DNA of 64,000 bases from Candidatus Eiseniibacteriota bacterium (GCA_963762255.1 CAVXKA010000002.1:864001-928000); one strand, 5' to 3'; numbered from the stretch's first letter, positions 35,422 to 64,000 are shown. The notes: generated by a model from the sequence alone, not told the origin. A program made the numbers and translations.

Positions 35422-37053
35422 CTAGGAGGGCGAGACCTTCACCCAACGCCCGTCGTTCTTGGGATTCAGCACGCCCTGATGCTTGATGTAGTTGCGCAGA
35501 ACCTCCAGGTCGGTGAATCCGGTGTACATCAGATCCTCGGATTGGAGCGCCTCGCGCAAGACGCCCATCCCGCTGTTCCCCTCGGCCAGGTAGTTGGTCA
35601 TGGCCACCTTGTAGATCTTCTCATCCTCTACAGGCTGACCGCCGATCGTGAACTCCACGATCCGGCTTCCGTCCGGCCGCGAAATGTCGTACGCGACCTT
35701 GCCGCCCGAGATGAAGATTCCGCCGGCGGTCCCGCGGAGCTTGTCCTCCATCATGCCGCGCAGCATCTGGCCTTTCAGATTCACGAGCACCATCTGATTG
35801 CCGAAGGGAGACACGCCAAGCAGGTGGCGCTCCGTGATATCGCCGGGAGAGATGTCCGCGCGCACGCCGCCCGTGTTCTGGATGGCGAAGTCGGCGTTGA
35901 GCTCGACCCGGAAGGCGTCCGCCATCACGAACCCCATGAGCGCGTTATTGGCCGACCCGCGCTGCAACAGCACCTCGGTCTGGCCGACCACGACATCGAG
36001 ACCCGCTTCGGCCTTGCTCACCTTCTCTTCGATGACCTTCTCCATGGCGGGGTCCGGCCAGATCTGCTCCTCGAACAGGGTGACCAGCGACCCGCGATCG
36101 GAGTGGGTCCGGTAGCCGATCATCTGCTTCGTGTTGCGATCGATGAGCATGGTGATGTGCCCGATGCTCGACCCGTTGCCGTAGGGTTCGAACACCACCG
36201 TGTGGGTGCGCGGATCCTCCCACGGCGTGTCGTAGCCCTGGTGGGTATGCCCGGTGAACATGGCGTCGATGCCCGGCGTCGTGTATGCGAGTTCCATCGC
36301 ACTCATGCCCCAGTGCGGAAGACCGCCTTCGGCATCGCGCTGCAGCATCTTGCGGTATTCGTTGCTCAACTCCGGCTTGTAGGGAAGCCCTGTGTGCAGG
36401 AGCGCAAGGACGACGTTTGCCCCCTGTGCGCGGACCCGCTCGACCTCGGGACCAAGCACCTCGTGGATGGGAGCGAACTCGATCCCTTCCAGGTTCTTTC
36501 CGAACGACATGTTGGCGGTGGACTCGGTGATGAATCCCACAACCGCGATCTTGATCCCGTCGACCTCGATGAAGAAGCTCGGGTCGATCCAGTCGACGGT
36601 CTTCTTGGTCTCGGCGTAGAGGATGTTCCCTCCCAGCACCGGGAAGTTGGCCATCTCGGCCAGACGCTTGGTGTTCTCCCACCCGAGGTCGAAATCGTGG
36701 TTGCCGAGCACGCAGGCCGTATACCCCATGTCGTTCATGAACTCGAAGATCGCGGTCCCCTTGGTGTTGGTGCCGAGCGGCGTCCCCTGGAAGATGTCGC
36801 CGTCGTCGAAGAGGAGCACGGCGCGCCCTTCCTTGGCCGCCTTGTCGCGAACGTCCTTGACGTAAGCGGCAATGCTCGCGCCCCCGCCCAGCGGCGGCGG
36901 GAAATTGGGATTCAGGAACGTAGCGTCGTCCTTGGAGATGTGCCCGTGGACATCGCTGGTGAAGAGGATGTCCACCTCGAGCAGATCGCTTGCGGGGATC
37001 GCCCCTCCCAGAAAGAGAAGACCGATGAGGCAAAGTGGGATGCATCGCTTCAT
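35422..37053 (-). CDS. Secreted 5'-nucleotidase/UDP-sugar hydrolase
   Basis: Signal peptide; SDVHG, DDGD, GNHDFD, GHTH; C-terminal NTGGVRA...PFGN...YLAEG domain. Confidence 0.92.
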   Translation of the reverse strand: MKRCIPLCLIGLLFLGGAIPASDLLEVDILFTSDVHGHISKDDATFLNPNFPPPLGGGASIAAYVKDVRDKAAKEGRAVLLFDDGDIFQGTPLGTNTKGTAIFEFMNDMGYTACVLGNHDFDLGWENTKRLAEMANFPVLGGNILYAETKKTVDWIDPSFFIEVDGIKIAVVGFITESTANMSFGKNLEGIEFAPIHEVLGPEVERVRAQGANVVLALLHTGLPYKPELSNEYRKMLQRDAEGGLPHWGMSAMELAYTTPGIDAMFTGHTHQGYDTPWEDPRTHTVVFEPYGNGSSIGHITMLIDRNTKQMIGYRTHSDRGSLVTLFEEQIWPDPAMEKVIEEKVSKAEAGLDVVVGQTEVLLQRGSANNALMGFVMADAFRVELNADFAIQNTGGVRADISPGDITERHLLGVSPFGNQMVLVNLKGQMLRGMMEDKLRGTAGGIFISGGKVAYDISRPDGSRIVEFTIGGQPVEDEKIYKVAMTNYLAEGNSGMGVLREALQSEDLMYTGFTDLEVLRNYIKHQGVLNPKNDGRWVKVSPS

Positions 37054-38396
37054 TGCGGAATGACCTCATCCTCCGCCGGCATGGCGGGGGCGTAATTGAC
37101 GGGCGCGTAGTGCACGCTCTGGGAGAGCGCCACCGAGACCTCGTAGCTCACGCCATCGGTGGTCAGGGTGACGTTGTAGCCCTTGTCGTTCGTTAGGCGA
37201 AGGCCGAGAGGCTCGGCGCGGTCGGAGGCGTAGATGTCGGTGCGGTGGTTACGGAGTCGGATGAGCACCGATTCGCTCGGTAGCGTTCCCAGGCTCGACT
37301 CGTACGTGGTGATGGGAATGAGCCCCACCCGCGGGTTGACCGCGTTCACCCAATCGGCTGGGCTGCTGTCGTCGAGGCCGTGGTGATGGACTTTGAGCAC
37401 TTCGGTGTCGATGGCGCTTCCCTTGGCGGCGGCGATGGACGTGGTCACGGGGGCCTCGGCGTCTCCCCCCAGCATCAGATTCACGTCGCCATAGGTGAGG
37501 CGCAGGATCACGGAGTCGTTGTTGAGGACGTCTCCCTCGCTCACTCCGCCGAAGGTGCTGCCGTAGCCGGAATTGAGCACTTCCACACCGACCGACCCGT
37601 CCCATACGAGGGCGGACGTGCCACTGGAGGTGTCCCCGGCGCGAATGGTGTCGATGGGAACCGACTTGGCGCGCAGGGTGGGAAGGAGTTCGTCCCGATA
37701 GCTGCGGTAGGCGTAGGAGTTCATGTCGGACTTGAGCGGCGTGTCCAGAAAGCGCCCGATGTCGTAGGCCCCGAGAACCCCGTCGGAGAGCGTGTAGCTC
37801 TCGCCGACGAGCCCGCCGATATGGTCGCTGTGGACATGCGTGGCCATGGCCACGTCCAGACGGCTCACCCCCGCCGCTTGGAGGTAGGCGTCCACGTTCG
37901 CCCAGTCTCGGCGTTCACCGCCGTCGATGATGATGCGCTTGCCCGTGTTCGGCATGGTCAAGATATGCGAGTCCCCAAAACCGACGTCGATCATGGTCCA
38001 ACTCAGGAAGGGCTTCGGCGCCGGCCGAGTCCCCACCGTGAACGAGACCTCGTCGGCCGTCACGACACCACCGTTCTGGGCTCGATCCAGAACCTGCAGG
38101 TAGATCTTCTCTCCCTGGCTCACCGAGAGGAGCGGTACCCGGTGCTCGGTCGCGTACGCCAAGTCGGCGCGCGCCGCCGAGGCCGGATAGGCAACCCGGT
38201 TGTAGACGCCCGACGACGTGCCGTACCGAACCGATCCCAGGGTGGGCTCGTCGGTACTCCATCTCACCGTGTTCCCCTCCAGAGTGATCCCGTCCTGGAC
38301 GGGCACCTTGAGCGGACTGGGGCTGGAACACCCTATGAACCAAGCCAAAGCCGCGGGGAGCAACGCCCCCGTCAGCCGCTGCAATATCGATCTCAC
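37050..38396 (-). CDS. Lipoprotein: Fn3/PAP-N-like domain plus ComEC/Rec2-type metallo-beta-lactamase fold
   Basis: FIGC lipobox; IDVGFGDS, IDGG, THVHSDHIGG, NNDS, GDAE, KVHHHG; no ComEC membrane domain. Confidence 0.85.
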   Translation of the reverse strand: MRSILQRLTGALLPAALAWFIGCSSPSPLKVPVQDGITLEGNTVRWSTDEPTLGSVRYGTSSGVYNRVAYPASAARADLAYATEHRVPLLSVSQGEKIYLQVLDRAQNGGVVTADEVSFTVGTRPAPKPFLSWTMIDVGFGDSHILTMPNTGKRIIIDGGERRDWANVDAYLQAAGVSRLDVAMATHVHSDHIGGLVGESYTLSDGVLGAYDIGRFLDTPLKSDMNSYAYRSYRDELLPTLRAKSVPIDTIRAGDTSSGTSALVWDGSVGVEVLNSGYGSTFGGVSEGDVLNNDSVILRLTYGDVNLMLGGDAEAPVTTSIAAAKGSAIDTEVLKVHHHGLDDSSPADWVNAVNPRVGLIPITTYESSLGTLPSESVLIRLRNHRTDIYASDRAEPLGLRLTNDKGYNVTLTTDGVSYEVSVALSQSVHYAPVNYAPAMPAEDEVIPQ

Positions 38397-38438
38397 GCTG
38401 TACGAGTCTCCTGGGGCAGGCGATGCCAGACGGCGATG

Positions 38439-39704
38439 CTAGAACCCGTAGTCCACACCCAGGGAAACCCGGAACAGCGTGTCGTCAACACGGTCCTGGC
38501 CAAGCCCCACGTAGGCGCCCTGCTCCGTGCGCGGGCGGATGGGGGTCTGGCGCGTCGACGCCTTCCCCACCTCGGCGGCCAGATCGATCCTGAACTGCTC
38601 GACCAGATAGCCGAACCCGAAGGTGAACGTCACCCGGTCGGCCTCGTCCATGGCGTACGACTGCCCGTAACGGAAGCCGATGCGCCCGGGGAGGTTGTTG
38701 TAGAAGACGTGCTCGAGACCGAAGCGGCCTTCCCACGTGTCCTGTAGCTTCTGGTCGGGGCTCAGATGGTCGGCGATCTCCGACCAGGGCGTGTACACCA
38801 CATCGGCGGCAAAGACGGTCTGGAACGCATTGCGAGGCCGGTAGGTGAGCCCTCCCTGGAAGCGCATGGGAAGCTCGAGATCGCCGCTCGACTGCTCGGG
38901 CGAGGTCACTGCGCCGTCGGTCCAGGTCGTGTAGTCATCGTTCAGCGACGGTTTCGTCTCGATCGCCGCACCGACCCGCAGCCGCTCGTCCACGTACACG
39001 TTGGCACCCACGGTCACCGAGAAGCCGTCCAGCTTGCGCTCGAGCTTCGCCTCGGTGGCCGAGCCGTAGTCGCTGGTGGCCAGCGAGACGAGGGCCTCGC
39101 GGTTGGTCAGGGTGCCGAAGTAGTAGTTCACCGCAACGCCCAGACCGGATCCGTCTCCGAATGGGAGCGCCACGCCCAGAGTGGCGGTGCGGAGCAACCC
39201 GTCGGTCTTGATGATCTTGTTGTTGCGCAGCGTGTCGCTGCTGTCGCTGGTGCGCAGCTCGTCGAAGTAGTCGTAACGGGGATCGTAGCGTGTGAACACG
39301 CCCCCCGACACGATCACGCCCCGCCCCCCCCAGTGATCGAGCACCACACCGCCCTGGAGCTCGCCGTAGCCGTTGTCGTTGACCGCGACCGCGGTCTCAT
39401 CGACGAACGAATCGAAGGTGTCGAACAGCGGCACGAGCCGGCTCTCGCTGGCCCGGGCCATTGCGCCCGTGAACTGCACGCGGTTGCCGCGCAGCAGGAC
39501 CAGGTTGGCCGGGTTGTCCACCAGGCTGAACACTCCGTCGCTCATCGCCGCACCCGCCCCTCCCATCGCACGCGAGCGCGCGGAGAGTCCGAGTTGCGGT
39601 GTCCCGTAGGCGCGATCCAGGAAGGAAAACGCGCTCGCCGGCCGGGCGGACACAAGGACCGCCGCCGCCAGCACTATCGTCAAGATGCCTCGCCTCATGC
39701 TCAT
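38439..39704 (-). CDS. Outer-membrane beta-barrel, FadL/PorV-like
   Basis: Signal peptide; SARSRAMGG...NPANL hatch motif; amphipathic strands; ends VDYGF. Confidence 0.75.
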   Translation of the reverse strand: MSMRRGILTIVLAAAVLVSARPASAFSFLDRAYGTPQLGLSARSRAMGGAGAAMSDGVFSLVDNPANLVLLRGNRVQFTGAMARASESRLVPLFDTFDSFVDETAVAVNDNGYGELQGGVVLDHWGGRGVIVSGGVFTRYDPRYDYFDELRTSDSSDTLRNNKIIKTDGLLRTATLGVALPFGDGSGLGVAVNYYFGTLTNREALVSLATSDYGSATEAKLERKLDGFSVTVGANVYVDERLRVGAAIETKPSLNDDYTTWTDGAVTSPEQSSGDLELPMRFQGGLTYRPRNAFQTVFAADVVYTPWSEIADHLSPDQKLQDTWEGRFGLEHVFYNNLPGRIGFRYGQSYAMDEADRVTFTFGFGYLVEQFRIDLAAEVGKASTRQTPIRPRTEQGAYVGLGQDRVDDTLFRVSLGVDYGF

Positions 39705-39729
39705 TCTCCCGCGAGTTCAGGCCCGGAGC

Positions 39730-42405
39730 CTAGAACGAGTAGTCCAGTTGGAACCGGTAAGAAGTCTGCTCCCCCCGCGCATCCGTGCCATCCGGGGTCG
39801 GCGATATCAAGTCGCCGAAGTTCCGGATGTCCACGTAAGAGCGAGGAAGCTGGTGGTCGGCGGTCCACTTGAGCCGCCAGGAAAGATTCTCCGAGAGCCG
39901 GCTGCGGAGCATGAACCAGTTCCGGAAGCCGTTTCCGTCGAGTACGACGAACTCGTTGTCCTCGAAGTTGTACAGGAAGCCGTCGTAGACCTCCGCCGAC
40001 ACCGTGGCGGTCAGGAAGTCGCTGAAGTTGTGCGTGAAGGTCGCCTGCACCGCCTTCGCCGGAATCCCCCGCGACCCCACCTGGTTGGTGCTCGTGTTGC
40101 CGCCATCGGCAGGGGCGCTGAGCCGAGGCCGGTCGGCAAACGTCACGTTGGTGGTCGAGTAGAGGAATCCCATCTGGTCGTAGTTGGAGAGATTGACCCG
40201 CATCTCCAACCGCGTGTCCCAGGACTGGAAGGCGCGGATGTCGTCCGGCCGCTGGTCGTGCCGGCCGGAAATCCGGTGACGAATGCGGAATCGCACCGGG
40301 AACACGGGCCGGTACTCCGCGCGGATGGTGAGTCGCTTCAGGTCCGCGCCGTCCGCCTTGCGGGTATAGGTGTCGTATTCGAGACCGGTCAGCGTGAAGG
40401 CCCGGGTGAACTGGTAGCGGGTGCTGAAATACCAGCCCTCCTCCGCCTTGGGAGAGGGGTCGTTGTACGCCGTGTAGCTGTACAGGGGATTCCAGAGCCG
40501 GAAGGGGTTTCCATCCATCAGCGTCTGCTGGAATTTGGAGTTCTCCGAGAACGCCCGGTTGTAGGGATTATCGTATCCCAACGAATAGTTCCGGTAGAGC
40601 GCCAGGAAGTTGAAGTTCTCGTACTGGATGTACCCGTTGGCGATGAAGGCCTCGGGGCCGTAGGAGAAGATCCGCTTGAGCGCGCTCTCCTCGTCCGAGG
40701 TCTCCAGCTTCCCGTACTCCGCGGCAAGGGACACGTTTTCGAACACCGTGGATCCCTCGGCGCCCCAGATCCGGCGATAGGGCCCGAGATCGGTGCTGTT
40801 ATACCGCGCGTAGAGTTCGGAGTCGCGGTCTTCCAGACGTGTCGCCGGCTGCATGACCAGCGACGCCGGATCGGGATTCCAACGCCGGGCAGCGTTGTCA
40901 TGGTAGAGACGGTTCCGGTAGTTCATGTCGAGCCCGGTGAGGCCGACGTAGGTCCCCGGACGGAACTCGTACTTCACGTTTCCGCCGGTGATCTGCTCCC
41001 TCATCACGTCCCGCATCGGCGTGTAGTACTTCGATTCCCGATGGCCCTTCAAGAGACCGGCGTCGATGTCGGCGCGGATCCCCTCGAGGAAGTCGTTCGA
41101 CACCCGCGGCATCATGGTGATGTAGGAGTTGAACGAGCCGTCCGGGTTGAGGATCGCGTCCTTGTCGTCCAGGGAGTAGAAGAACGTCCCCCGGACGTGG
41201 CCCAGGGTTCCCTCCAGAGCCGTCCCGCGCAGCGTGTACTCGTCGCTGCGGGAGATATCACCGCGAATGCCGACCGCCCGCACGTTGTAGCCGGAGCCGG
41301 TGCGTCGCGGCATGAAGAAGTCGGTCGCATCCATGATGAGGCCCTGACCCAGAGTCACCGCGTAATTGCCCACCACCGCCTTGTGGAGCTGGAACTTGCC
41401 GAAGGGGGTCGAAACCGGGGCGTAATCGCCGAGTTCGACATAGGCCTTGGCGGTCTCGTCCCAGTTCTCCTCGCCCAGGTTGCGATGGGCGATCCCCCCG
41501 GCCTTCAAGTGCCGGCCGTAGCGCAGGCGCAGCTTGTTGGTCATATAGGGGTCGCTGGCGCCCAGGTTCATCCGTCCGGCGAAGGTGTTCTCATCGAAGT
41601 TGCGGAGGTTCGCCCTTTGCTCGGCGGTCAGCGAGTTCGACTCGCTGGTGCTGATCGTGGCCTGGACGTTCTCGGTGAGCGCATCGTAATCGTCCAGTGT
41701 GTAGGGCGTGTTGTACACGCGGAACTGGTAGTCCCCCGAGAACCGCGTCTTGGTCTCCTCGGGATCGTCGTAACGGATGAAGTCCCGCAGGTTGCGGAAA
41801 CCCCAGTAGGTGACGCCGCTCGCCGACCGGAGCTGACGCATGTTCTCGATCTTGCCGGCGAGACTGCGCTCGCGCAGCATCGCCACCGCGTCCACGGGAG
41901 ACACGTTCTGGTAGGAGACGAGATCGTAGTAGTTCAGGCGGTTGACGTTTCGAGGGTCCTTGATCTGGTCCACATAGTCGTCAACCAGCCCCTCGCTCGC
42001 CCCCTCCTCGGAGAGGAACCGCTGCACGACGTAGTAGCGCTCCTGGGCGCGTCGTTCCTCCTCGCGCATGTCCTCCTGCTCCAACTGGAAGATCGGGGTG
42101 ACCACCACCAAGGGCCGGAGGGTCTCCAGCATCTGGGGGGTGACTCCCTCCACTTCGAGCAGATCGAAGAGGCTATTGAAGTAGGCGCGGTACTTGCGAT
42201 GCTCGTACATCGCCTCGGCCACGCTGGCGGGGATGGGCAGGGTTTTCAGCGCGTCCAGCGACGCGTGGTTGATGTCGATCTGGTGCTCGCCGCTGATGGA
42301 GGTTCCGGTGTCCGCCGTGCCCTGAGCGCGCAGGACGCCCGGAGACAGCGCGGCCGCCGCCACCACCGCGGCAGTGAGGATCAGTCTTCGTCGCAGACTC
42401 AACAC
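39730..42405 (-). CDS. Outer-membrane barrel protein with two N-terminal ComEA-like helix-hairpin-helix modules
   Basis: AGGAGG RBS; signal peptide; IDINHAS...FNSLFDLLEVEGVT and NVN...LRSASGVT; long beta region ending FQLDYSF. Confidence 0.8.
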   Translation of the reverse strand: MLSLRRRLILTAAVVAAAALSPGVLRAQGTADTGTSISGEHQIDINHASLDALKTLPIPASVAEAMYEHRKYRAYFNSLFDLLEVEGVTPQMLETLRPLVVVTPIFQLEQEDMREEERRAQERYYVVQRFLSEEGASEGLVDDYVDQIKDPRNVNRLNYYDLVSYQNVSPVDAVAMLRERSLAGKIENMRQLRSASGVTYWGFRNLRDFIRYDDPEETKTRFSGDYQFRVYNTPYTLDDYDALTENVQATISTSESNSLTAEQRANLRNFDENTFAGRMNLGASDPYMTNKLRLRYGRHLKAGGIAHRNLGEENWDETAKAYVELGDYAPVSTPFGKFQLHKAVVGNYAVTLGQGLIMDATDFFMPRRTGSGYNVRAVGIRGDISRSDEYTLRGTALEGTLGHVRGTFFYSLDDKDAILNPDGSFNSYITMMPRVSNDFLEGIRADIDAGLLKGHRESKYYTPMRDVMREQITGGNVKYEFRPGTYVGLTGLDMNYRNRLYHDNAARRWNPDPASLVMQPATRLEDRDSELYARYNSTDLGPYRRIWGAEGSTVFENVSLAAEYGKLETSDEESALKRIFSYGPEAFIANGYIQYENFNFLALYRNYSLGYDNPYNRAFSENSKFQQTLMDGNPFRLWNPLYSYTAYNDPSPKAEEGWYFSTRYQFTRAFTLTGLEYDTYTRKADGADLKRLTIRAEYRPVFPVRFRIRHRISGRHDQRPDDIRAFQSWDTRLEMRVNLSNYDQMGFLYSTTNVTFADRPRLSAPADGGNTSTNQVGSRGIPAKAVQATFTHNFSDFLTATVSAEVYDGFLYNFEDNEFVVLDGNGFRNWFMLRSRLSENLSWRLKWTADHQLPRSYVDIRNFGDLISPTPDGTDARGEQTSYRFQLDYSF

Positions 42406-42414
42406 GACCGCCTC

Positions 42415-43335
42415 CTACTTCCCGGAGGAGAGGACATAGCTCACACCGAACTGGTGGGTGGCCTCGAGGGTGCCCCCCCCAGTGGAGAAGCCGTAGTCCA
42501 CGGTGATGCCGTATTGGCTGATGCCGACACCGGCGGTGAAGATACTGGGCTCCGAGCGGATGCCGGCGCGCAGGCACAGGTAGTCGTTGACCTCGAACTC
42601 GGTCCCGCCCCGGAACTGGAGCGGATCGCCGAGCGTGCTCGAAATGTCGAGCGCGGTGGTCACGCCCTTGTAGGGCACGTAGGCCACCCCCGCTCCGACG
42701 CGGCGGATCAGGTCTTCCTTGTCGGTCTTGCCGATCGTGGGGTTGTTCATGTTGAGGGCGTAGAACCCCACGCGGGTGCGGTTGTAGATCGTGGCCTGCG
42801 CGGAGAAGTCGACGCCGAACGCCGTCGCGTTGCCGGGATCGATCCCGGTGCCCGGCTGGCCAGGATCCACATCCACGCTCATCCCGTAGTCCAGGTGGTA
42901 GATATTGATCCCCCACCCCGCCGCGAGCGTGCTCTGCATGTCCTTGAGAAGCTGGAACCCGTGCGCGAGGCTGATCGTGGTTTCCCCGGTCAGGTTCTCG
43001 CCTCGGTAGTCGACACCGAAGTGTCGAACACCGAGTCCCACGCCTCCGAACCGGCCCGCGCTCATCGTCCCCGAAGCCACGATCTGCTGCGAGAAGTCGT
43101 AGCCGAACGGCCTCACGAAGGAGGCCGCGACCGCAGGACCACCGGTCCAGGCGAGCGAGGCGGCGTTGTGGAACGGCGCGTACGCGTCCGCGGGGAGCGC
43201 GCTGAACGCACCGCCCAGCGCACGCGCCCGCGGGGACACCTCCAGATCCTCGAAGGCGGCAAAGGCCGGCGCCGCCGCAGCGAGGAGAGCCAGACCCACC
43301 AGGGCCGGCATCAGTCGTCTCCAGTTCGTCTTCAT
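42415..43335 (-). CDS. PorV/PorQ/PorP-like T9SS-associated beta-barrel
   Basis: Signal peptide; PRARALGG...HNAASL; LRAG...VDYGF...THQFGVSY pattern; 306 aa. Confidence 0.75.
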   Translation of the reverse strand: MKTNWRRLMPALVGLALLAAAAPAFAAFEDLEVSPRARALGGAFSALPADAYAPFHNAASLAWTGGPAVAASFVRPFGYDFSQQIVASGTMSAGRFGGVGLGVRHFGVDYRGENLTGETTISLAHGFQLLKDMQSTLAAGWGINIYHLDYGMSVDVDPGQPGTGIDPGNATAFGVDFSAQATIYNRTRVGFYALNMNNPTIGKTDKEDLIRRVGAGVAYVPYKGVTTALDISSTLGDPLQFRGGTEFEVNDYLCLRAGIRSEPSIFTAGVGISQYGITVDYGFSTGGGTLEATHQFGVSYVLSSGK

Positions 43336-43348
43336 CTTGTCGCCCCCC

Positions 43349-48441: not shown

Positions 48442-48563
48442 GGGACGAAACCTTTCTCCTCCACGGAGTCGGTTTGAGTTGGGCCGGACCATGCCGGCCG
48501 CGGAGAAGGACCGCGCGATCGACCGGGAGCCAAGAACCCCTCGTCGAAAGCTAGCCCGGCAGT

Positions 48564-50582: not shown

Positions 50583-50621
50583 GCTACCGGCCTCACGCGC
50601 GTCGCGCCATCCGTGCGCGCA

Positions 50622-50655: not shown

Positions 50656-50679
50656 CGCGGAGCGTGATCCGCCGAGATT

Positions 50680-53720: not shown

Positions 53721-54343
53721 CGCGCCTCCCGGAGCATGCTCCGCACTTTGGTCACAAGGAGATCGACGGCGACTCGGTTTCGCCCACCCTCGGGAATGAT
53801 GATGTCGGCGTAGCGCTTGGAAGGTTCGATGAACTGGAGATGCATCGGGCGCACGCTCTCTTCGTACTGTTGGAGGATCGATTCCAGGCTTCTCCCCCGC
53901 TCCATCGTGTCCCGGCGGATGCGCCGGATGAGCCGCACGTCGGGGTCGGTGTCGATGAACACCTTGATGTCCATGAGCTTTCGGAGCGCGGGATCCTCCA
54001 ACACGAGGATCCCCTCCAGCATGATGACGCGGTGCCCCTCCACGCGCACCGTCTCCGGCAGGCGGGAGTGGTGGGTGAAATCGTACGTGGGCTTCTCGAT
54101 CGGCTGGCCGCGCAGGAGCGCCTCCATGTGATCGAGGAGAAGCTCGCGGTCGAAAGCGTCGGGATGGTCGAAGTTGAGCTTCGCCCGCTCTTCTATGGTG
54201 AGGCCGGCGAAGTCCTTGTAGTAGGAATCCTGCTCGATCATCACGACCTCTCGCGAACCCAGGTTCTCGATGAGGGTGGATGTGACGAGGGACTTCCCGG
54301 AAGCGGAGCCGCCGGCGATGCCGAGAAGAAGGGGCCCTTCCAT
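53717..54343 (-). CDS. udk: Uridine kinase
   Basis: GIAGGSASGKS, QDSYY, NFDHPDAFD, RRIRRDTMERGR, KRYADIIIP. Confidence 0.96.
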   Translation of the reverse strand: MEGPLLLGIAGGSASGKSLVTSTLIENLGSREVVMIEQDSYYKDFAGLTIEERAKLNFDHPDAFDRELLLDHMEALLRGQPIEKPTYDFTHHSRLPETVRVEGHRVIMLEGILVLEDPALRKLMDIKVFIDTDPDVRLIRRIRRDTMERGRSLESILQQYEESVRPMHLQFIEPSKRYADIIIPEGGRNRVAVDLLVTKVRSMLREAR

Positions 54344-54362
54344 GACGTCCTGTCCTGCTTTC

Positions 54363-56855: not shown

Positions 56856-57415
56856 GGCTGGCGGTAGACCTCTTCTTTGAGCACGCCGATGTAAGGCAGG
56901 TTCCGGTAGAGCTGGTTGTAGTCGAGCCCGTAGCCCACCACGAATTCGTTGGGACACTCGAAGCCGACGTACTTCACCGGCACTTCCTCGGCGCGAGCCT
57001 CGCGCTTGTCGAGCAGCGCGCAGATCTCCACCGACTTGGGATGGCGGGTGTAGAGGTTGTCGAGGAGATAGCGCGCGGTGAGGCCGGTGTCGATGATGTC
57101 CTCGACGATCAGGACGTGCCGTCCGTCGATGGGCTGGTTCAGATCCTTGAGGATGCGCACGACTCCCGAGGAGTGGGTGCCGCCGCCGTACGAGGAGACC
57201 GACATGAAGTCGACCTCGAGGTGGGTGTTCATCGAACGCACCAGGTCCGCCATGTAGGGAAAGCACCCGTTCAGGATGCCGACCATCAGAACGCGCCGGT
57301 CCGCGTAGTCGCGAGCGACCTCCGCACCCATGGCCTGAACCTTGGCCCGGACTTGTTCCTCGCTGAAGAGAACCTCTCGCATGTCCGCACCGATACCGTT
57401 TTCCCAAGATTTCAT
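56852..57415 (-). CDS. hpt: Hypoxanthine phosphoribosyltransferase
   Basis: VSSYG, VLIVEDIIDTGLT, FVVGYGLDY, YRNLPYIG. Confidence 0.96.
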   Translation of the reverse strand: MKSWENGIGADMREVLFSEEQVRAKVQAMGAEVARDYADRRVLMVGILNGCFPYMADLVRSMNTHLEVDFMSVSSYGGGTHSSGVVRILKDLNQPIDGRHVLIVEDIIDTGLTARYLLDNLYTRHPKSVEICALLDKREARAEEVPVKYVGFECPNEFVVGYGLDYNQLYRNLPYIGVLKEEVYRQP

Positions 57416-57619
57416 GCTGTGGCGATTCCCCTCTCTCCCGCTGGTTATGGTGCTCCCGGTGGCTTGTCGAGATGCGCGAGGCCGGAGCCCGGGAGGTAGG
57501 ACCGATCGGCGAGCATTCTGCCGCGTCCGCCCCCGGGAGGCAAGGCGCGAAACCGGGACACGCGGCGCCGCTCGGGGGTACCATGCGTGGAAGCTTCGGG
57601 CCGAAGGAGGGATGCGTTT

Positions 57620-58507
57620 ATGAGGTCTCGCGCGATCGCGTTGGTCTTGTTGTTGGCGGCTTGGATTCCCGGCGTTGCGGGGGCCTGGGAGTACCCCGTC
57701 ACCCCCGGCGATCTCACTCCCCCGCTCGAGTTCGTGAAGATGACCATCGTCACGCCGGACTCCGCGAGGCTCGCCACCTGGTACGTGCCGGCGCAGGACA
57801 GCGCGGGGGCGGTGCTCCCCGGTCGCCATCCCGGCGTGCTGGTCCTGCCCGGGGACCGCGACGTAATGGACGAGCGGCTGCACGTCGTTTCGGGACTCGC
57901 CCGCCGAGGCTTCTCGGTGCTCACCTTCGACCACCGCGGGCGCGGCGGCAGCAGCGACTTCTTCATCGACCGCCGCGCGCTCCTCTATCCGGAGTTTCTC
58001 GAGGACGCTCACTCCGCGCTCTTCATCCTGCGGCGCCAGGCCGAAGTGGATACGACGCAGCTCGCTCTCTACGGGGAATCGCGGGGCGCCTACCTCGCGC
58101 TGGCCCTGGCCGGCGAGCGACCGGAGACGCGCGCGGTGGCCGCGATTTCACCCCCGTTCAGTTTCGCCACTTGGCTTCCGGTGCTGGAGCGCGAGGAGCC
58201 GGGCGAGACGTACTTCGTGCCCGACGGATGGAAACGAAAGTGGGATGCCGACAAGGCGGTGGATCGCTTCAACGGCGCGATCCTGTTCGTTGCCGGCGAT
58301 CGCGATCTCACGACGCCGGCCTGGATGGCCGAGGATCTCTTCAAGCGGTATCCGCGGAGCAAGGACCTCTGGATCGTGGAAGGCGCCGGGCACGCCGGGC
58401 CGCAGAGCCCGTCGCGCTTCGCGGGCGAACGCTTCTTCGGGCGCGTGAGCGAGTTCCTGCACCGCGAGCTGGAGCGCCCGCCCCATCGGGGGTGGCCGGA
58501 GCGGTGA
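57620..58507 (+). CDS. Secreted alpha/beta hydrolase
   Basis: AAGGAGG RBS; signal peptide; DHRGRGGS, GESRG, GDRD, GAGH. Confidence 0.85.
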   Translation: MRSRAIALVLLLAAWIPGVAGAWEYPVTPGDLTPPLEFVKMTIVTPDSARLATWYVPAQDSAGAVLPGRHPGVLVLPGDRDVMDERLHVVSGLARRGFSVLTFDHRGRGGSSDFFIDRRALLYPEFLEDAHSALFILRRQAEVDTTQLALYGESRGAYLALALAGERPETRAVAAISPPFSFATWLPVLEREEPGETYFVPDGWKRKWDADKAVDRFNGAILFVAGDRDLTTPAWMAEDLFKRYPRSKDLWIVEGAGHAGPQSPSRFAGERFFGRVSEFLHRELERPPHRGWPER

Positions 58508-58556
58508 CGGAGCGCAGCCGGCCGAAATCTTGGCCGGGCCTTCCCTGGATCCAGGG

Positions 58557-59024
58557 TCAGGGCGCGAGCAGGCGGCGAAGCAACCGAATCTGTCCGGCGT
58601 GGTAGGTCAGATGGGTCAGGAGCCGAAGGATGTAGGCCTGCACGGTGGCGCCGCCGGGCCATCCCTCCGCCGGCGCGGGCCCACCGAGGGCTCGCGGGTC
58701 CATCGTGAGGACCGCGGTCCGCGTCTCGACGCACGCTTCGTCCCACATCGCGAGCACATCCGCCTTCGACGCCCAGGGCTCGGCGGCGAACTCGCGATCG
58801 CGTTCGCGCGCGTAGTCGCTGCCGTAGAGAAGATGGCCGAAGAAGTGCCGGAGGTTGCCGACGAGATGGAGCGCGAGGTTGCCCGGCGAGACCGCGCCCG
58901 GCACCGGGCGCTCCCAGAGACGCGCCTCGGGGACCGCCTCCAGGTCCTCACGCACCGAGACGTGGTAGCGCTCCACCAGATCGGCGACGGTGTTGAGGAA
59001 CTCCTGCTCCTGGCTCTCGACCAT
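58557..59024 (-). CDS. DinB/DUF1572-like protein
   Basis: SPGNLALHLVGN, RERDREF, HLTYHAGQI. Confidence 0.85.
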   Translation of the reverse strand: MVESQEQEFLNTVADLVERYHVSVREDLEAVPEARLWERPVPGAVSPGNLALHLVGNLRHFFGHLLYGSDYARERDREFAAEPWASKADVLAMWDEACVETRTAVLTMDPRALGGPAPAEGWPGGATVQAYILRLLTHLTYHAGQIRLLRRLLAP

Positions 59025-59025
59025 G

Positions 59026-59298
59026 TCAGATCCCCATGTGGACTTCGTCCACGACGCCAACGATGACGGCCCGCACCGGCGCGTTCGGGTCACCGACCAC
59101 CTGGCGGGCGGAGTTGCCCTCGTCGATCAGGAGCACCAGCTCGCCGGCGCCCGCGTCGACGGAGTCGAGCGCGATCACGTAGCGCCCGTCCGGCGCGAGC
59201 TTCTCGTCCAGGCGATCCACCAGCAGCATGCGTCGCCCCTGATAGAACGGGTGCTGGATCGTGGAGACGACGGTGCCGGTTACTCTGCCGAGGAACAT
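59026..59298 (-). CDS. BMC vertex pentamer (EutN/CcmL)
   Basis: MFLGRVTGTVVST...DSVDAGAGE...IVGVVD. Confidence 0.93.
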   Translation of the reverse strand: MFLGRVTGTVVSTIQHPFYQGRRMLLVDRLDEKLAPDGRYVIALDSVDAGAGELVLLIDEGNSARQVVGDPNAPVRAVIVGVVDEVHMGI

Positions 59299-59336
59299 CG
59301 CGAGGTCCCTCCGTCCGGCGACGCGAACACGTTCAC

Positions 59337-59606
59337 CTACTGGTCGCTCACGTCGTCGGCGATGCCGACGATGGCGTGGTCCACGGGCACGAAGGTCTCG
59401 GGCAACGCCATCGCGGCCTCGCGCCCGCCGATGAAATAGACGAGCTCGCCGGGACCGGCCTGCCCGGTGGCGTCGGCGCACACCAGCGGATCGCCCGCGC
59501 TCTTCATCTTGCGGTCGAGCGGCTCCACCATCAGGAGCTTCACCCCTTCGAGCCCTTCGCTCTTGACCGTCGCCACCAGCGTGCCGCGCACCCGCCCGAG
59601 TTGCAT
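59337..59606 (-). CDS. BMC vertex pentamer (EutN/CcmL)
   Basis: MQLGRVRGTLVAT...AGPGE...PVDHAIVGIAD. Confidence 0.93.
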   Translation of the reverse strand: MQLGRVRGTLVATVKSEGLEGVKLLMVEPLDRKMKSAGDPLVCADATGQAGPGELVYFIGGREAAMALPETFVPVDHAIVGIADDVSDQ

Positions 59607-60232
59607 CAGCCTTCGCCCTGGTTCCACTGGGCCGCGAAACGCGTCCCGCCGAAGATGTTCTCGGCCAGTTCGGTATGGAGCCGCGGAATCACAACTTTCT
59701 GCACGAGGTTGCCGCTCTCGATCGCGGAAACGCCGAATTCCACCGCGGCCTCCACGTCGGCCTGCTCGCCGGCAAAGAGCAGAAGCGCCTTCCCGCCCAG
59801 ACCGTTGGCGAGACGAAGCTCCACCAGCGCCACCTGCGCCCCCTTCATACCGGCATCGGCGGCGCGGATCGCGCTCACCGTGGTGCGCGTCTCGATCACG
59901 CCGAGCGTGTCGATGGGATCCTTCGAGCGCTGACCGGCGATGGCGTTGCCCACTGCGGGGTGGATGTCGGGAAGGAACAGGCGATCGATGAGCGCGGGCG
60001 CGCCCGCCTCCACTCCGGCAGCGAGCGATTCCTCGACGCTGGCCACGTCGCCGTCCACCAGCACCAGGTACTTGCCCGGATGAACGCTCCCCGCCACCAG
60101 CGCCCGCACCGGCGCCTTCTTCACCATCGCGTCGGCCGCTCGCATGCCGAGCGCGATGCTCGAGAACTCGAGGAGTCCGAGCGCGGGCACAGTCACCCCG
60201 GGAGCGAGGTCGGCGGCTTCGATCGAGTCCAT
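59606..60232 (-). CDS. BMC tandem-domain shell protein (BMC-T, PduT-like)
   Basis: ALGLLE...ADAMVKKA...PGKY...GDVASV and a second domain LGVIET...ADAGMK...GLGGK. Confidence 0.9.
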   Translation of the reverse strand: MDSIEAADLAPGVTVPALGLLEFSSIALGMRAADAMVKKAPVRALVAGSVHPGKYLVLVDGDVASVEESLAAGVEAGAPALIDRLFLPDIHPAVGNAIAGQRSKDPIDTLGVIETRTTVSAIRAADAGMKGAQVALVELRLANGLGGKALLLFAGEQADVEAAVEFGVSAIESGNLVQKVVIPRLHTELAENIFGGTRFAAQWNQGEG

Positions 60233-60242
60233 CGTCCCTTTC

Positions 60243-61679
60243 CTACACGATCCGGAAGCGGTCCACGAGGACGCACCGCCGCCAGCGGGTGAAACTGCGA
60301 GCGCGGGTCATTCCCTCGCCGGTGGGGCTCGCGATCGAGAACGAGGTGAACCCCTCGCCGCCCGCGCCCAGCCCGGCCAGCGACGAGCCGTTCTTGACGA
60401 AGATCGAGCAGTCCATGACCCGGGCCATGCGGCTCAGGGCATCCACGTTCCGCGAGTGCATGACCGCGGTGTGGCGGAAGCCGTGCTCGGCGGCCTTGGC
60501 CAGATCGATAGCCGCGTTCACGTCGCGCACGCGCACCAGCGGCATGACCGGCATCATCTGCTCGGTCCAGACCAGCGGATGATCCTCGGGGACTTCCACC
60601 AGGATCATGCGCACGTCGTCGCCCACCGTGATCCCCATCTCCTTGAGAATGACGGCGGGGATCTTTCCGATGAAGTTCTTGTTGATCACGCCGTGCTGGC
60701 GCGGCCCGCGCATCTCGGTGAAGATCGTCTTCTCGAGCTTCCCGAGCTGCCAGGCGGTGAGTTCCACCGCGCCGGCGGCGATCATCGCCTTCTTCAGGCG
60801 ATCCGCCACCGCGTCCACGCAGATCACTTCCTTCTCCGTGGTGCAGACGATCTGGTTGTCGAAGGATCCGCCTTTGACGATGTCGCGACCGGCGCGCTCG
60901 AAGTCGGCGGTCTCGTCCACCACCACCGGCGGATTACCAGGGCCCGCGCAGATGGCGCGCTTGCCGCTGCCCATCGCCTCTTTCACCACGCCGGGACCGC
61001 CGGTGACGACCAGCAGGTTGACCAGCTTGTGGCGCATGAGTTCCTGCGCGCTCTCGATCGTGGGATTGGCCACACACGTGACGAGGTTGGGCGGCCCGCC
61101 CGCGGCGGTGATCGCCTGATTGATGAGCTGCACCGTCTTGGCCGAGCAGTTCTTGGCGTTGGGATGGGCGTTGAAGACGGCCGCGTTCCCCGCCGAGAGC
61201 ATCCCGATCGCGTTGTTGATGATGGTGGCGGTGGGGTTGGTGGTCGGTGTGATCGCGCCCACCACGCCGAAGGGCGCAAGCTCCAGAAGCGTGAGCCCGT
61301 GGTCGCCGGTGGTGACCAGTGGTTCGAGATCCTCGGGCCCCGGGCTCTTGTTGATGACGAGAAGGTTCTTCTCGACCTTGTCCTCGTAGCGGCCGAGCCC
61401 GGTCTCCTCGCGCGCCATCCAGGAGAGCAGCTCCGCGTTGTGACGCAGCACGACCCGCATCTGGGCGATGATGTCGTAGCGCAGGGCGAGGCTCGACTCA
61501 CAAAGCAAGCGCTGCGCTTCCTTGGCCGCGGTGACCGCGCTCTCCACGCCGGCGAAGATGCCGTCGCTCCCGGGCGCCGGGGGCGGCGGGAGCGGCTTCC
61601 CCTCGGGGGTGTGGCCCGACTTCATCGAGCCCAACACATCCTGCACCGTGCGGCTGATCTCCTCGCGGGAGATGCTCAT
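60243..61679 (-). CDS. eutE: CoA-acylating aldehyde dehydrogenase (EutE/PduP family) with an N-terminal encapsulation peptide
   Basis: PFGVVGAITPTTNP, TGGPGVV, AGPGNPP, FDNQIVCTTEKE, TGEG; amphipathic N-terminal helix plus Pro-rich linker. Confidence 0.92.
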   Translation of the reverse strand: MSISREEISRTVQDVLGSMKSGHTPEGKPLPPPPAPGSDGIFAGVESAVTAAKEAQRLLCESSLALRYDIIAQMRVVLRHNAELLSWMAREETGLGRYEDKVEKNLLVINKSPGPEDLEPLVTTGDHGLTLLELAPFGVVGAITPTTNPTATIINNAIGMLSAGNAAVFNAHPNAKNCSAKTVQLINQAITAAGGPPNLVTCVANPTIESAQELMRHKLVNLLVVTGGPGVVKEAMGSGKRAICAGPGNPPVVVDETADFERAGRDIVKGGSFDNQIVCTTEKEVICVDAVADRLKKAMIAAGAVELTAWQLGKLEKTIFTEMRGPRQHGVINKNFIGKIPAVILKEMGITVGDDVRMILVEVPEDHPLVWTEQMMPVMPLVRVRDVNAAIDLAKAAEHGFRHTAVMHSRNVDALSRMARVMDCSIFVKNGSSLAGLGAGGEGFTSFSIASPTGEGMTRARSFTRWRRCVLVDRFRIV

Positions 61680-61694
61680 CCGCCTCTCCTTCCC

Positions 61695-61991
61695 TTACTC
61701 ATTCGACTTGTCGTAGACACGGCGATCGTCCAGCTCCCAGGTGTCCACGATCGCCATCACGACGGCGTCGCAGGGACGGTCCTTGGTGGACTGGGTCTGG
61801 CGCGCACTGGAGCCGGTGGCGAAGAGGACGACTTCGCCGACCCCCGCCCCCACTGCATCGCTCGCCACCACGAAGCTGCCGGTCTCCTTGGCTTCCGCGG
61901 TGAGCTGGCGCAGGAGCAGGAACTTGAGTCCCTCCATGCTCTCTTCCTTGCGCGAGGCCACCACGGTGCCGACCACCCGGGCCAGTAGCAT
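61695..61991 (-). CDS. BMC vertex pentamer (EutN/CcmL)
   Basis: [13 protein letters not shown]...DAVGAGVGE...GSSAR...DAVVMAIVD. Confidence 0.94.
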
Positions 61992-62048
61992 GAGCTTTCC
62001 TCCGCGGACGGGGCCGGGACGCGTGCCCCGACCCCGTTCGGAAGTGCG

Positions 62049-62360
62049 TTACTTGCCGCCCATCTCGGCGCGGGCTTCCTTGCTCCGGCCGAGAGGCAGC
62101 GCGATGTCCACGTTGACGTGCGGCCGCGGAATGGTGTGCGTGCTCACCACCTCGCCCACCTTCTCCGCCCCACGCTTGCCGGCATCCACCGCCGCTTTCA
62201 CCGCGGCCACGTCGCCGCGGACGATGACCGTCACATAGCCCCCGCCGATCTTCTCGTAGGCGACCAACTCCACCTTCGCCGCCTTCACCATGGCGTCGGC
62301 GGCTTCCACCGTCGCGGCGAATCCGCGGGTTTCGATCATGCCCAGCGCTTCTGCCATCAC
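62049..62360 (-). CDS. BMC hexamer shell protein (BMC-H, EutM/PduA-like)
   Basis: ALGMIETRG...ADAMVKAA...IGGGY...RGDVAAV...IPRPH. Confidence 0.96.
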
Positions 62361-62451
62361 GTCCTCCGTTGCTTCGGGTTATGCGGCCGGGGAGGCGCCT
62401 TCGTCGGGCTTCACGGCCCGCGCGTGCCCCGTCCGGTCTTCTGAAATCGTT

Positions 62452-63081
62452 CTAGGACTCCCGCCCGGTCAACTCCGCGATCGCGGCCTCGGCGGCGCGG
62501 TACCCGACGTCGATGTCGCGCTCCTCACCGCCGAGATAGATGCGGCCGAACGAACCGAACGCGCGCACATCGAGAATGTTGATGTGCGCCGCCTTCTCCG
62601 CCTCGTTGGCGGCGAGCGCCGCGTAGGCCGCGGGCTCCAGCTCCATGACGTATAGGCTATGCCCCGGCACCAGCATGTTGCCGTGGCGCATCCGGTTGAT
62701 GAGCTGGGCCTGGAGCGGATCCACGAGGCGGATCACCTGGCTCGAGAGGACGCGCGGCTTGCGCCGGTCGCTCTCGGTGAGACCGCACGCATCGAGGATC
62801 GCCTGCCCCGCCTGGCGCACTTCGCCCTGCGATTCGGAGTGAACCTCGAGAAGGCCGTACAGGCGCTCGACGATCTGCATGCCGGGAAAAACGTTGGTGC
62901 TCTTCACCGCGATGTCGGTGATGCGGTTGATCTCGATGCCGGGTGAGATCTCCACGTACAGGCACGCTTGGCCGGGCAGCGGCAGGAACCCTCCCGCCAC
63001 CGTGCCCAGGAACGCCGCGTGCTGCGGCTGCAAGCTGTCGAGAAACACGTAGGAGCGCAGGTCGATCTGCGTTTTCGCCAT
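62452..63081 (-). CDS. Permuted, dimerising BMC-T shell protein (CsoS1D/CcmP-like)
   Basis: [50 protein letters not shown]. Confidence 0.9.
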
Positions 63082-63998
63082 CAGTAAGGACCTTTCGTTT
63101 GCGGGGAGTCGACGGCCTCGCCGCGCGACTCCTTCACGATGCGCACCCCCGCCGAGGCGCCGATGCGGGTCGCCCCCGCCTCGATCATCCCCAGCGCATC
63201 GGCATAGCTCCGAATGCCGCCCGCGGCCTTCACCCCCATTTCGGGGCCCACCGTGGCGCGCATGATGGCCACGTCGCGGATGGTCGCCCCCCCTGAGGCG
63301 AATCCGGTGGAGGTCTTCACGAAATCCGCGCGCGCGCGCTTGGCGAGAAGGCAGGCCACGACCTTTTCCTCGTCGGTGAGGAGGGCGGCTTCGATGATCA
63401 CCTTCACGATCACGTTCGATTCGTGGCAGGCGGCGGTGACCTCGGCGATGTCTTCCTCCACCAGATCGTAGTTCCCGCTCTTGAGCGCGCCCACGTTGAT
63501 GACCATGTCCACCTCGCGCGCGCCCTCGCGGATCGCCTTGCGCGACTCGAAAGCCTTGGTGGCGGGAGTGGTGGCGCCGAGCGGGAAGCCGACCACGGTG
63601 CAGACCTTGGCGTCGCTCCCTCGCAAGAGCTGCGCGCAGAGTCGCACGAAGCTTGGGTTGACGCACACCGAGGCGAAGTGGTTGCGCGCCGCTTCCTCGC
63701 AGAGCTTCTGAATCTCCGCTTCGGTGGCGTCGGGCTTGAGCATGGTGTGGTCGATGTAGCTGGCGATGTCGTGGGCCACCGCGCCGCTTCCGCCGCCGGA
63801 GCCGATACGCGACGCGCCGGCGGCCACAAAGCTTCGCACCGTCTCCGGGCTGCGCTGCGCGGGGTTCGTGCTGCGCGCGCGGTCTTCGGAGTCTGCGGAG
63901 CTGGCGTGACGGATGGCGGGTCGCTCGTAGCACGGCTCGTAGGAGCGGCGGTAGGCCTCGGTGACCGCGGGGCCCTTGGGTGCCGACCCGGCGGGCGA
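63081..63998 (-). CDS. deoC: Deoxyribose-phosphate aldolase, 5'-partial, with a long N-terminal extension
   Basis: [47 protein letters not shown]; frame stays open to the window edge. Confidence 0.95.
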
Positions 63999-64000
63999 GG

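Follow-up and report, generated by a model that had tools for sequence, protein, structure and literature searches.

Three adjoining gene modules with nucleic-acid themes in an uncultured Eisenbacteria lineage: a helix-hairpin-helix barrel cassette, a salvage operon and an SPU-type microcompartment

We analysed a window of 64,000 nucleotides (G000:C2:864001-928000; positions are counted from its first nucleotide) from the 4.1-Mb, three-contig genome of an uncultured soil bacterium of Candidatus Eisenbacteria, and in particular the region 35422-64000, where genes for candidate surface DNA-capture proteins, nucleoside salvage enzymes and a bacterial microcompartment (BMC) lie side by side. Because the G+C content of the window is about 67%, genes were called from third-position G+C (GC3 frame analysis), together with Pfam and NCBIfam family searches. 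Nearly all genes named in the initial annotation were found in place, and its statement that all genes but one lie on the minus strand held: by GC3, the sole real plus-strand gene encodes an alpha/beta hydrolase (57587-58507; Hydrolase_4, E 1.1e-12). On the basis of intergenic distances, a terminator-like hairpin and this divergent gene, the region consists of units A1 and A2 (below, cassette A), B, a spacer and C. All other features described below are on the minus strand.

Unit A1 encodes, in this order, a PHP-like lipoprotein, a giant protein with lamin-tail (LTD) and OB-like domains, a PorV-like barrel, a barrel with helix-hairpin-helix (HhH) modules, a FadL-like barrel, a metallo-beta-lactamase (MBL) lipoprotein and a 5'-nucleotidase, with intergenic gaps of -4 to 71 bp, and continues into an alpha-2-macroglobulin gene. 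The HhH-barrel (39730-42405; 891 aa) is a predicted outer-membrane barrel with two N-terminal ComEA-like HhH modules (HHH_3, E 2.1e-13). The score of 50.6 bits against PF12836 (cut-off 27) identifies a ComEA-type, putatively DNA-binding module, whereas 31.6 bits against TIGR01259 (cut-off 152) and the length of the protein set it apart from the small stand-alone ComEA. Its AlphaFold2 (AF2) model, built on a 23-sequence alignment (pLDDT 75, pTM 0.73), is helical at residues 40-210 and has about 24-26 strands at 222-890; the position of the HHH_3 match is invariant over the 23 aligned homologues, and the protein ends in DYSF, with an aromatic last residue as in outer-membrane proteins. A Foldseek search with the model returned generic large barrels only (ushers, TonB-dependent transporters, SlpA and MtrB; TMq 0.2-0.3). 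The modelled fold class is clear, without a specific relative.

The PorV/PorQ-like small barrel (42415-43335; NF033709, E 1.3e-14, 54.6 bits, under the cut-off of 90) comes straight after the giant gene, within 13 bp. The FadL/BamG-like outer-membrane barrel (38439-39704), which ends in DYGF, matched Toluene_X (E 9.3e-7) and NF053685 BamG (E 9.5e-23), both under cut-off. The MBL lipoprotein (37050-38396; Lactamase_B, E 3.1e-6), a candidate DNase with the lipobox-like motif FIGC, matched TIGR00361 ComEC_Rec2 under cut-off (E 3.7e-17) and the solved ComEC MBL domains 9ic4_A and 30bt_A (E 1.8e-18; both about 1e-18). The last cassette A gene encodes a UshA-type 5'-nucleotidase with a signal peptide (35422-37053; 5_nucleotid_C, E 3.6e-34, and Metallophos). 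Among the Pfam and NCBIfam matches of the genes at 35422-52596 there was no TonB-receptor or plug family, the large barrel carrying only HHH_3, and the results included neither a SusC-like transporter nor a SusD-like lipoprotein, so by that measure the region is not a polysaccharide utilisation locus (PUL). Elsewhere in the genome, about 720 kb off the locus, lies a full-length ComEC-type gene (G000:C2:182285-183055; PF03772, 790-aa frame), which makes DNA import across the inner membrane possible. Beyond the 5'-nucleotidase, after a 3-bp gap, genes for the alpha-2-macroglobulin (1909 aa) and a 781-aa protein occupy 27330-35418; this pair is retained in the relatives G004 and G007 and was not found in the examined stretches of G003 and G008.

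The two secreted LTD/OB-fold proteins of the initial annotation are both present, the larger of them as a single gene that is split in this assembly. This giant surface-protein gene (43349-48492; about 1,714 codons) encodes an LTD (E 1.2e-8), repeated OB-like and Big_5 units (Big_5, E 3e-15 and 5.4e-10) and a C-terminal domain (CTD) resembling those of the type IX secretion system (T9SS). The frame plot shows five segments separated by four frame changes (near 47520, 47065, 45165 and 44691), and the segments 48474-47527, 47515-47072, 47061-45157, 45176-44691 and 44695-43352 tile on the 1750-aa protein of G004. In all three relatives examined (G003, G004 and G007) the gene is an intact open reading frame of 1716-1810 aa. 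The last 110 residues are conserved across phyla; among 26 members this domain matched FlgD_ig in 13 and the T9SS signal CHU_C in 5, and in the giant protein the Por_Secre_tail match was weak (E 0.0038). An OB match (PF01336) was obtained in the homologue of locus L042.

The second LTD-like protein (50680-52596), which also has an OB/DUF5689-like region, is encoded by unit A2, a transcription unit of its own. With 35.2 bits against TIGR04183 (cut-off 23), it carries a T9SS type A sorting domain. It matched ExeM_NucH (E 4.4e-4) and DUF5689 (PF18942; E 0.0037, 17.6 bits, under the cut-off of 28.6) weakly, and precomputed PF18942 annotations are present on 3 of the 120 homologues listed for it. 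Its N-terminal third (about 200 residues) is 43-49% identical to PF03372-bearing proteins of the ExeM/NucH type. Neither LTD protein of the window matched PF03372 in Pfam, and NF033681 gave 19.2 bits against a cut-off of 300, over the N-terminal part only; the protein thus has no recognisable ExeM/NucH catalytic domain. Fold matches of its AF2 model (pLDDT 82.6) were mostly generic Ig-like multi-domain proteins, with the p204 HIN-dsDNA structure at rank 41. The gene is followed by a terminator-like hairpin (50627-50656; 13 pairs, 9 of them G-C, and a T-run). Terminator-like sites in the region do not exceed shuffles in total number, and this is the strongest one. Between the two LTD genes, 48564-50582 encodes a lipoprotein with a C-terminal CehA/McbA (PHP-like) metallohydrolase region (NF038032, E 4e-12, under cut-off), which was not on the initial gene list. 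PDB sequence searches gave no match for the LTD/T9SS protein, a 792-aa piece of the giant protein or the PHP-like protein. A SprA homologue is encoded elsewhere in the genome (SprA_N, 137 bits, over cut-off).

Unit B (52857-57400) is a salvage operon with gaps of -4 to 19 bp. It consists of hpt (56852-57400; TIGR01203, 211.8 bits), an amidohydrolase-type deaminase gene (55500-56840; best match PRK07228, 444 bits, under the cut-off of 522), add (54363-55499; TIGR01430, 298.8 bits), udk (53717-54343; NF004018, 305.6 bits) and the PNP gene (52857-53720; NF006054, 326.9 bits), all but the deaminase scoring over cut-off. Through hpt, udk and add, the operon serves the return of bases and nucleosides to the nucleotide pool as much as their breakdown. 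The spacer between B and C comprises about 1.2 kb with the alpha/beta hydrolase gene, plus a DinB/mycothiol-S-transferase-like gene past the last shell gene (58557-59040; MST, E 2.9e-14). A NupC-family transporter gene heads the operon, directly before hpt, in G003 (L005 14651-15958) and G007 (L009 11713-13083), and in G004 a gene with HD and HD_assoc_2 domains (dNTPase-like) lies directly upstream of hpt (L002 19281 to L003 1500).

Unit C (59026-64000, extending past the window) has the gene order RpiB-DeoC-BMC-T-BMC-H-BMC-P-AldDH-BMC-T-BMC-P-BMC-P, where AldDH is an acylating aldehyde dehydrogenase. The RpiB gene, just past the window (window-equivalent 64112-64672; PF02502, E 4.6e-50), is 11 bp from the DeoC gene, which crosses the window end (63081 to about 64100; PF01791, E 8e-18; TIGR00126, 278.4 bits, cut-off 117.3). 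There follow a CcmP-like BMC-T (62452-63072; NF053796, E 6.4e-101), a BMC-H (62049-62360; Pfam BMC), a BMC-P (61695-61991; EutN), the AldDH (60243-61679; NF011927, 643.7 bits, cut-off 403), a tandem BMC-T (59606-60232; BMC) and two further BMC-P genes (59337-59627 and 59026-59298; both EutN). The shell genes are thus three of EutN type, two tandem-BMC and one BMC-H, and PF00936 and PF03319 scored over cut-off. Published sugar-phosphate-utilisation (SPU) microcompartments are recognised by a DeoC-family aldolase in a shell-gene locus, an adjoining RpiB, an acylating AldDH and BMC-H, BMC-T and BMC-P proteins. Since module C has each of these, it is, as judged by its sequence, a member of this known kind. 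The identical nine-gene order occurs in three Krumholzibacteriota genomes, at about 40-74% identity. No PduL, Pta or alcohol dehydrogenase gene was seen within the operon. An ADP-forming acetyl-CoA synthetase, encoded 2 kb upstream of the BMC operon, could make ATP from the acetyl-CoA of the microcompartment. It belongs to a stretch past the BMC (L001 1752-7351, window-equivalent 64752-70351) that encodes Tag (3-methyladenine glycosylase, divergent from RpiB), a chalcone-isomerase-like protein, this synthetase and MutY; Tag and MutY are two DNA-repair glycosylases beside a putative DNA-catabolic organelle.

Contigs from four RNA libraries (X12, X17, X18 and X19) cover the LTD/T9SS gene, pieces of the giant gene and the hpt region, and one contig of X18 (6,458 nt) runs over 57599-63980, spanning genes on both strands. 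These contigs come from relatives 90-99% alike and may reflect DNA carry-over; they cannot show transcription, strand or level, and we draw no expression claim from them. The segment 49337-50003, uncovered in all four libraries, carries no meaning. At the far end of the window, positions 1-2000 have a G+C fraction of 0.54, against 0.63-0.72 elsewhere, and Rfam showed no RNA gene there.

To the initial annotation the region was a candidate superlocus, physically linked and resembling a PUL for DNA, a proposal that it tied to synteny and profiling across relatives. Within one Eisenbacteria order the linkage stood. The order A-B-C was retained in all five sufficiently contiguous relatives, which represent two families and have differing flanks; G001, G002, G005 and G009 were too fragmented and are left out of this count. 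In G003, G004, G006 and G007, members of the same family, the AldDH gene, add and the HhH-barrel gene lie in this order on a single contig, and gene-by-gene tblastn recovered the full series in G003, G004 and G007. In G008, from the other family (proteins about 50% identical, with a range of about 37-63%), a contig with the BMC and a contig with the salvage operon and cassette meet inside the same EutN gene, with an exact overlap of 55 bp. Here iron-uptake and peptidase genes replace those for Tag, the chalcone-isomerase-like protein and the acetyl-CoA synthetase upstream of RpiB, and no alpha-2-macroglobulin gene follows the nucleotidase. Since the flanks of G008 differ on both sides (those of G003 differ on one), the retained block is exactly RpiB to the 5'-nucleotidase. 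Between C and B, the length of the spacer ranges from about 1 to 10 kb. An 11-mer common to the upstream regions of RpiB and hpt was treated as a chance match: it is not kept at the corresponding sites of G003, G004, G007 and G008, where the closest was a lone copy with one mismatch upstream of RpiB in G007.

Outside the order the modules are unlinked and independently distributed, which is the outcome that the initial annotation had named as refuting its proposal. In the 4.16-Mb chromosome of G046, whose barrel is 58% identical, the cassette lies at 2.30 Mb, away from the PNP homologues (1.69 and 1.71 Mb); no AldDH was found at E 1e-60, and shell domains gave two partial matches only, at 3.20 Mb. 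In G047 and G048, cassette, BMC and PNP are on three separate contigs, and in G092 the cassette stands alone within 80 kb. All five Krumholzibacteriota genomes with the cassette have shell genes; in the three where the spacing was resolved, the BMC is about 190 kb (G042) or 310 kb (G044) from the cassette or on another contig (G045). The modules were thus unlinked in all seven resolved genomes beyond the order; G049, with its cassette at a contig end, and G041 and G043, whose BMC and cassette contigs may be one or two, stand outside the linkage counts. In five of five genomes examined that have a BMC and no cassette, PNP lies elsewhere, at a distance of 180 kb or more from the BMC or on a different contig. 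Among 41 genomes (this one and 40 relatives), 31 have shell genes and 9 a full-length HhH-barrel. The barrel was found in 17 of 206 genomes of the phylum and is patchy, being present in 5 of 89 genomes of family f10, 2 of 3 of f18 and 1 of 15 of f16.

To assess the conservation of cassette A, we scanned HhH-barrel homologues at one genome per species, confirmed 220 loci and kept 80, which were searched with the window proteins by local tblastn over 10-kb flanks, many loci being cut by contig ends. Matches were found to the PorV-like barrel in 79 of the 80 loci, to the C-terminal piece of the giant protein in 75, to the FadL-like barrel in 70, to the 5'-nucleotidase, placed after the barrels, in 62, to the LTD region in 53, to the MBL lipoprotein in 22, to the LTD/T9SS gene in 14, to the PHP-like gene in just 4 and to PNP in 2. 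BMC genes were found in none, and a 10-kb flank could not have reached the BMC. The CTD and PorV matches occur together in 76 of 80, with the cargo gene immediately followed by the PorV/PorQ-like barrel gene. In each of the 14 distant loci scanned, this barrel gene is preceded by one for a protein of 788-2217 aa with LTDs (11 loci, one to four LTDs each) or with Big_5, with or without OB. CBM_56-like matches were present in 8 of 20 surface proteins scanned. All ten Krumholzibacteriota-type loci scanned have housekeeping flanks (genes for a Mrp/ParA-type ATPase, PTS-EIIA, NUDIX, an AAA_2 ATPase, RsgA and a heptosyltransferase), and none has salvage or BMC genes. Thus, cassette A is a conserved unit, which Eisenbacteria have in common with Krumholzibacteriota and with uncultured lineages of a similar kind. 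For Cloacimonadota, WOR-3 and Fidelibacterota, look-alikes from the ESM Atlas serve as leads only.

We compared the three modules with known systems. Microcompartments of the SPU type (Sutter et al. 2021, PMC8217296; Commun Biol 2024, PMC11585597; reportedly also Axen 2014) resemble module C in the DeoC-type aldolase, RpiB, acylating AldDH, BMC-H, three BMC-P and tandem BMC-T including the CcmP-like one; no difference is essential, and only the neighbourhood with salvage and surface-capture genes is new here. SPU BMCs have been described from more than 280 loci in 26 phyla (PMC8217296), and, as the initial annotation noted, their use of DNA detritus is the standard published hypothesis (PMC8217296, PMC11585597), which a 2025 preprint extends to archaea with DNA-binding shell proteins (PMC12747264). 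According to PMC11585597, SPU DeoC is active on deoxyribose-5-phosphate and SPU RpiB nearly inactive, and for an SPU6 locus of Chloroflexi the use of deoxyribose-5-phosphate is shown for enzymes only. The words 'nucleoside', 'nuclease' and 'phosphopentomutase' each have no occurrence in that paper, and the passages drawn on here from it and from PMC8217296 mention no salvage or surface-capture neighbours.

A close counterpart of cassette A is the Bacteroides locus ddbABCDEF, a PUL-like DNA-utilisation locus shown genetically, in which nucleases are combined with a TonB-dependent transporter and a DUF5689 partner (Sharan et al. 2025, PMC12478041). Going by the predicted functions of cassette A, the two would share a PUL-like logic for DNA, with a surface DNA-binding protein (DUF5689 in Ddb, OB-like here), an outer-membrane channel, secreted and periplasmic nucleases, kinship with transformation proteins and nucleoside or base products; DUF5689 is the family of DdbD, to which the LTD/T9SS protein gave its weak match. 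Ddb, however, relies on the TonB-dependent transporter DdbC with a lipoprotein partner, whereas cassette A has no TonB-dependent receptor and instead combines a plug-less barrel fused to HhH modules with a 5'-nucleotidase and with cargo of T9SS type that has a PorV-like partner. The two have no nuclease families in common, and the part of the published account that deals with Ddb describes no microcompartment link. Competence proteins offer a second likeness, in the HHH_3 modules of ComEA and the C-terminal nuclease domain of ComEC, to which the MBL is homologous. ComEA is, however, small and periplasmic or membrane-anchored, and the ComEC MBL is part of an inner-membrane channel, whereas in cassette A the HhH modules form one protein with an outer-membrane barrel, and the MBL stands on its own as a lipoprotein. 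Extracellular nucleases of the ExeM/NucH type (Shewanella ExeM, PMC6085458) have similar lamin-tail and OB-like N-terminal regions, but the window LTD proteins, without the PF03372 domain, look like binding-only relatives.

T9SS cargo genes with adjacent PorP/SprF- or PorQ/PorV-type barrel genes are familiar from Flavobacterium and Porphyromonas. The large CTD cargo gene followed by a small PorV/PorQ-like barrel gene, together with SprA in the genome, resembles this pattern, whereas the giant protein and the barrel score under cut-off on the curated CTD and PorV/PorQ models. In the deo/nup system of Escherichia coli (deoCABD, nupC), PNP, DeoC and NupC act on (deoxy)nucleosides, as they would here (NupC in relatives), but the A-B-C block contains neither deoB nor deoA, its DeoC is probably encapsulated, and hpt, udk and add point to recycling over pure catabolism. 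The literature search, which did not extend to subscription journals or supplements, found no paper on an outer-membrane barrel fused to ComEA-type HhH modules or on a BMC beside capture genes. The claim that the full arrangement had not been described needs a qualification, since PUL-like DNA loci of Bacteroidales (PMC12478041) and a hypothetical DNA-detritus role of SPU microcompartments (PMC8217296, PMC11585597) are in print.

From the gene content we infer how the modules could act on exogenous DNA. T9SS-exported multi-domain lamin-tail/OB proteins, displayed on the surface, would bind DNA, the giant one probably being held via its CTD by the adjacent PorV/PorQ-like barrel. The DNA, or fragments cut by the local MBL lipoprotein or by nucleases encoded elsewhere, would enter through the large barrel, whose periplasmic ComEA-like HhH modules may retain it. 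Once the DNA is cut to nucleotides, the periplasmic 5'-nucleotidase would free nucleosides and phosphate. Module B would feed the nucleosides, taken up via NupC in relatives, into purine and pyrimidine pools, and its PNP would also liberate (deoxy)ribose-1-phosphate. Module C would split deoxyribose-5-phosphate to give glyceraldehyde-3-phosphate and acetaldehyde, and turn the latter into acetyl-CoA. Established enzymology joins 5'-nucleotidase, PNP, phosphopentomutase, DeoC and AldDH.

The initial annotation had noted that phosphopentomutase, pyrimidine phosphorylase and an inner-membrane nucleoside transporter are not in the window, and this gap is real, deoB and NupC not being found anywhere in the genome. 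Its suggestion to look beyond 64 kb led to rpiB, at the position given above, and to a pyrimidine-nucleoside phosphorylase C-domain about 35 kb before the window start, and to neither deoB nor nupC. The nucleic-acid or nucleoside theme ascribed to each module was borne out, and a linked transporter exists in the two relatives with nupC at the head of operon B and is absent here. deoB (TIGR01696) was found in 15 of the 41 genomes, including both sister-family genomes, where it lies away from the locus. It was found in none of the eight genomes of family f1, two of which are 98-100% complete and all of which carry SPU BMC shell genes, so that in this family the step from the PNP product to the DeoC substrate is without an identified enzyme.

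Taken together, these results make it probable that in this lineage three modules of independent inheritance have come to lie next to each other, all of them plausibly serving the use of exogenous nucleic acid, and that the region is not one conserved machine. A, B and C came together and stayed together in one Eisenbacteria order, which fits a shared ecological role in the use of DNA detritus and not an obligate coupling. Several observations weigh against this reading. A gene for an M14 carboxypeptidase of about 950-1100 aa stands between the BMC and the salvage operon in G004 (L002 11504-14791), G003 (L005 11655-14579) and G007 (L009 15276-18137); it is missing from this genome, where the two spacer genes, neither with a nucleic-acid theme, separate the same modules. 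No regulatory motif shared by the modules was found, and Rfam, at gathering thresholds over the entire window, gave no match and thus no riboswitch or RNA gene. Family f1 lacks a detectable deoB, and NupC was found in neither this genome nor G004 and G008. None of the 14 large surface proteins scanned has a Pfam nuclease domain, 58 of the 80 cassettes have no MBL match, and the housekeeping and envelope surroundings in Krumholzibacteriota would also fit a constitutive envelope function. The frame changes in the giant gene are either indel errors of long-read assembly in a repetitive gene or real decay; since contigs of related organisms lack one base at 44691, an assembly indel is at least as likely. 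Finally, all carriers are uncultured metagenome-assembled genomes.

A stronger coupling, in which A, B and C work as a single integrated pathway of catabolism under common regulation that passes the carbon of captured DNA to the microcompartment as a PUL-like superlocus, would explain why the block from RpiB to the 5'-nucleotidase is kept in two families while its flanks change, and why nupC or the HD dNTPase-like gene lies inside it in relatives. It is also in line with the formation of deoxyribose-1-phosphate by PNP and the activity of the SPU DeoC of a characterised relative on deoxyribose-5-phosphate (PMC11585597). We nevertheless regard it as rather unlikely, given that the transcription units number at least four and are parted by a strong terminator-like hairpin and a divergent gene, that no common operator was found, that the modules are unlinked in every resolved genome outside the order, that the BMC is far commoner than the cassette (31 against 9 of the 41 genomes) and that deoB was not found in family f1. 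Improbable, in our judgement, is a role of cassette A chiefly as a pilus-independent gate for DNA uptake in natural transformation, leading to the inner-membrane ComEC, with B and C as incidental neighbours. HhH modules of ComEA type and an MBL domain like that of ComEC belong to the competence machinery, the full ComEC is encoded at a distance, and the Ddb transporter of Bacteroidales has homologues among the transformation proteins of Riemerella (PMC12478041), but the most constant enzymatic partner of the barrels is a 5'-nucleotidase, which destroys nucleic acid on entry instead of preserving it; in ten loci scanned, neither the cassette nor its 10-kb flanks showed DprA, ComF or pilus genes, and the neighbours within this order are catabolic.

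Still less probable is that cassette A, as a T9SS module, acts as a surface adhesin or in the envelope and has no part in handling DNA, its LTD, Ig-like and OB-like domains binding other polymers and its 5'-nucleotidase scavenging phosphate from free nucleotides; the 28 kb would then owe their nucleic-acid theme to B and C only. LTD and Big_5 are general binding or spacer domains, and the CBM_56-like matches, the Krumholzibacteriota surroundings and the mostly Ig-like fold matches of the LTD/T9SS model agree with such a function. It sits poorly with an HHH_3 match that exceeds the Pfam cut-off at an invariant position, with an MBL that matches ComEC specifically, with an LTD region common to ExeM/NucH nucleases, with the OB-fold nucleic-acid-binding match and with the presence of p204 among the fold matches. 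A simple capture-to-organelle pipeline is not to be assumed, because the modules are separable and the family with the juxtaposition lacks a recognisable phosphopentomutase.

The most original part of the region is the HhH-barrel cassette, not the BMC link: it is well defined, conserved widely and apparently unpublished, and is a candidate gate for DNA in the outer membrane that would need neither TonB nor a pilus. As a tentative possibility, this cassette may be a TonB-independent, T9SS-coupled machine for DNA capture and import, new to print, that in this Eisenbacteria order makes up an island for DNA catabolism together with an SPU metabolosome and a salvage operon of nupC type. If so, a genomic, physical link of DNA capture at the surface with a microcompartment would be seen here for the first time, in direct support of the long-standing view that DNA detritus is burned in SPU organelles. 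Such microcompartments rank among the most common organelles of bacteria, and their proposed role in DNA breakdown has so far been deduced from enzyme content alone; a BMC beside salvage genes, with nupC in relatives, and a probable DNA-capture cassette provides evidence from context for this role. The analysis also points to a lineage where soil or sediment microcosms could serve to examine co-induction by DNA.

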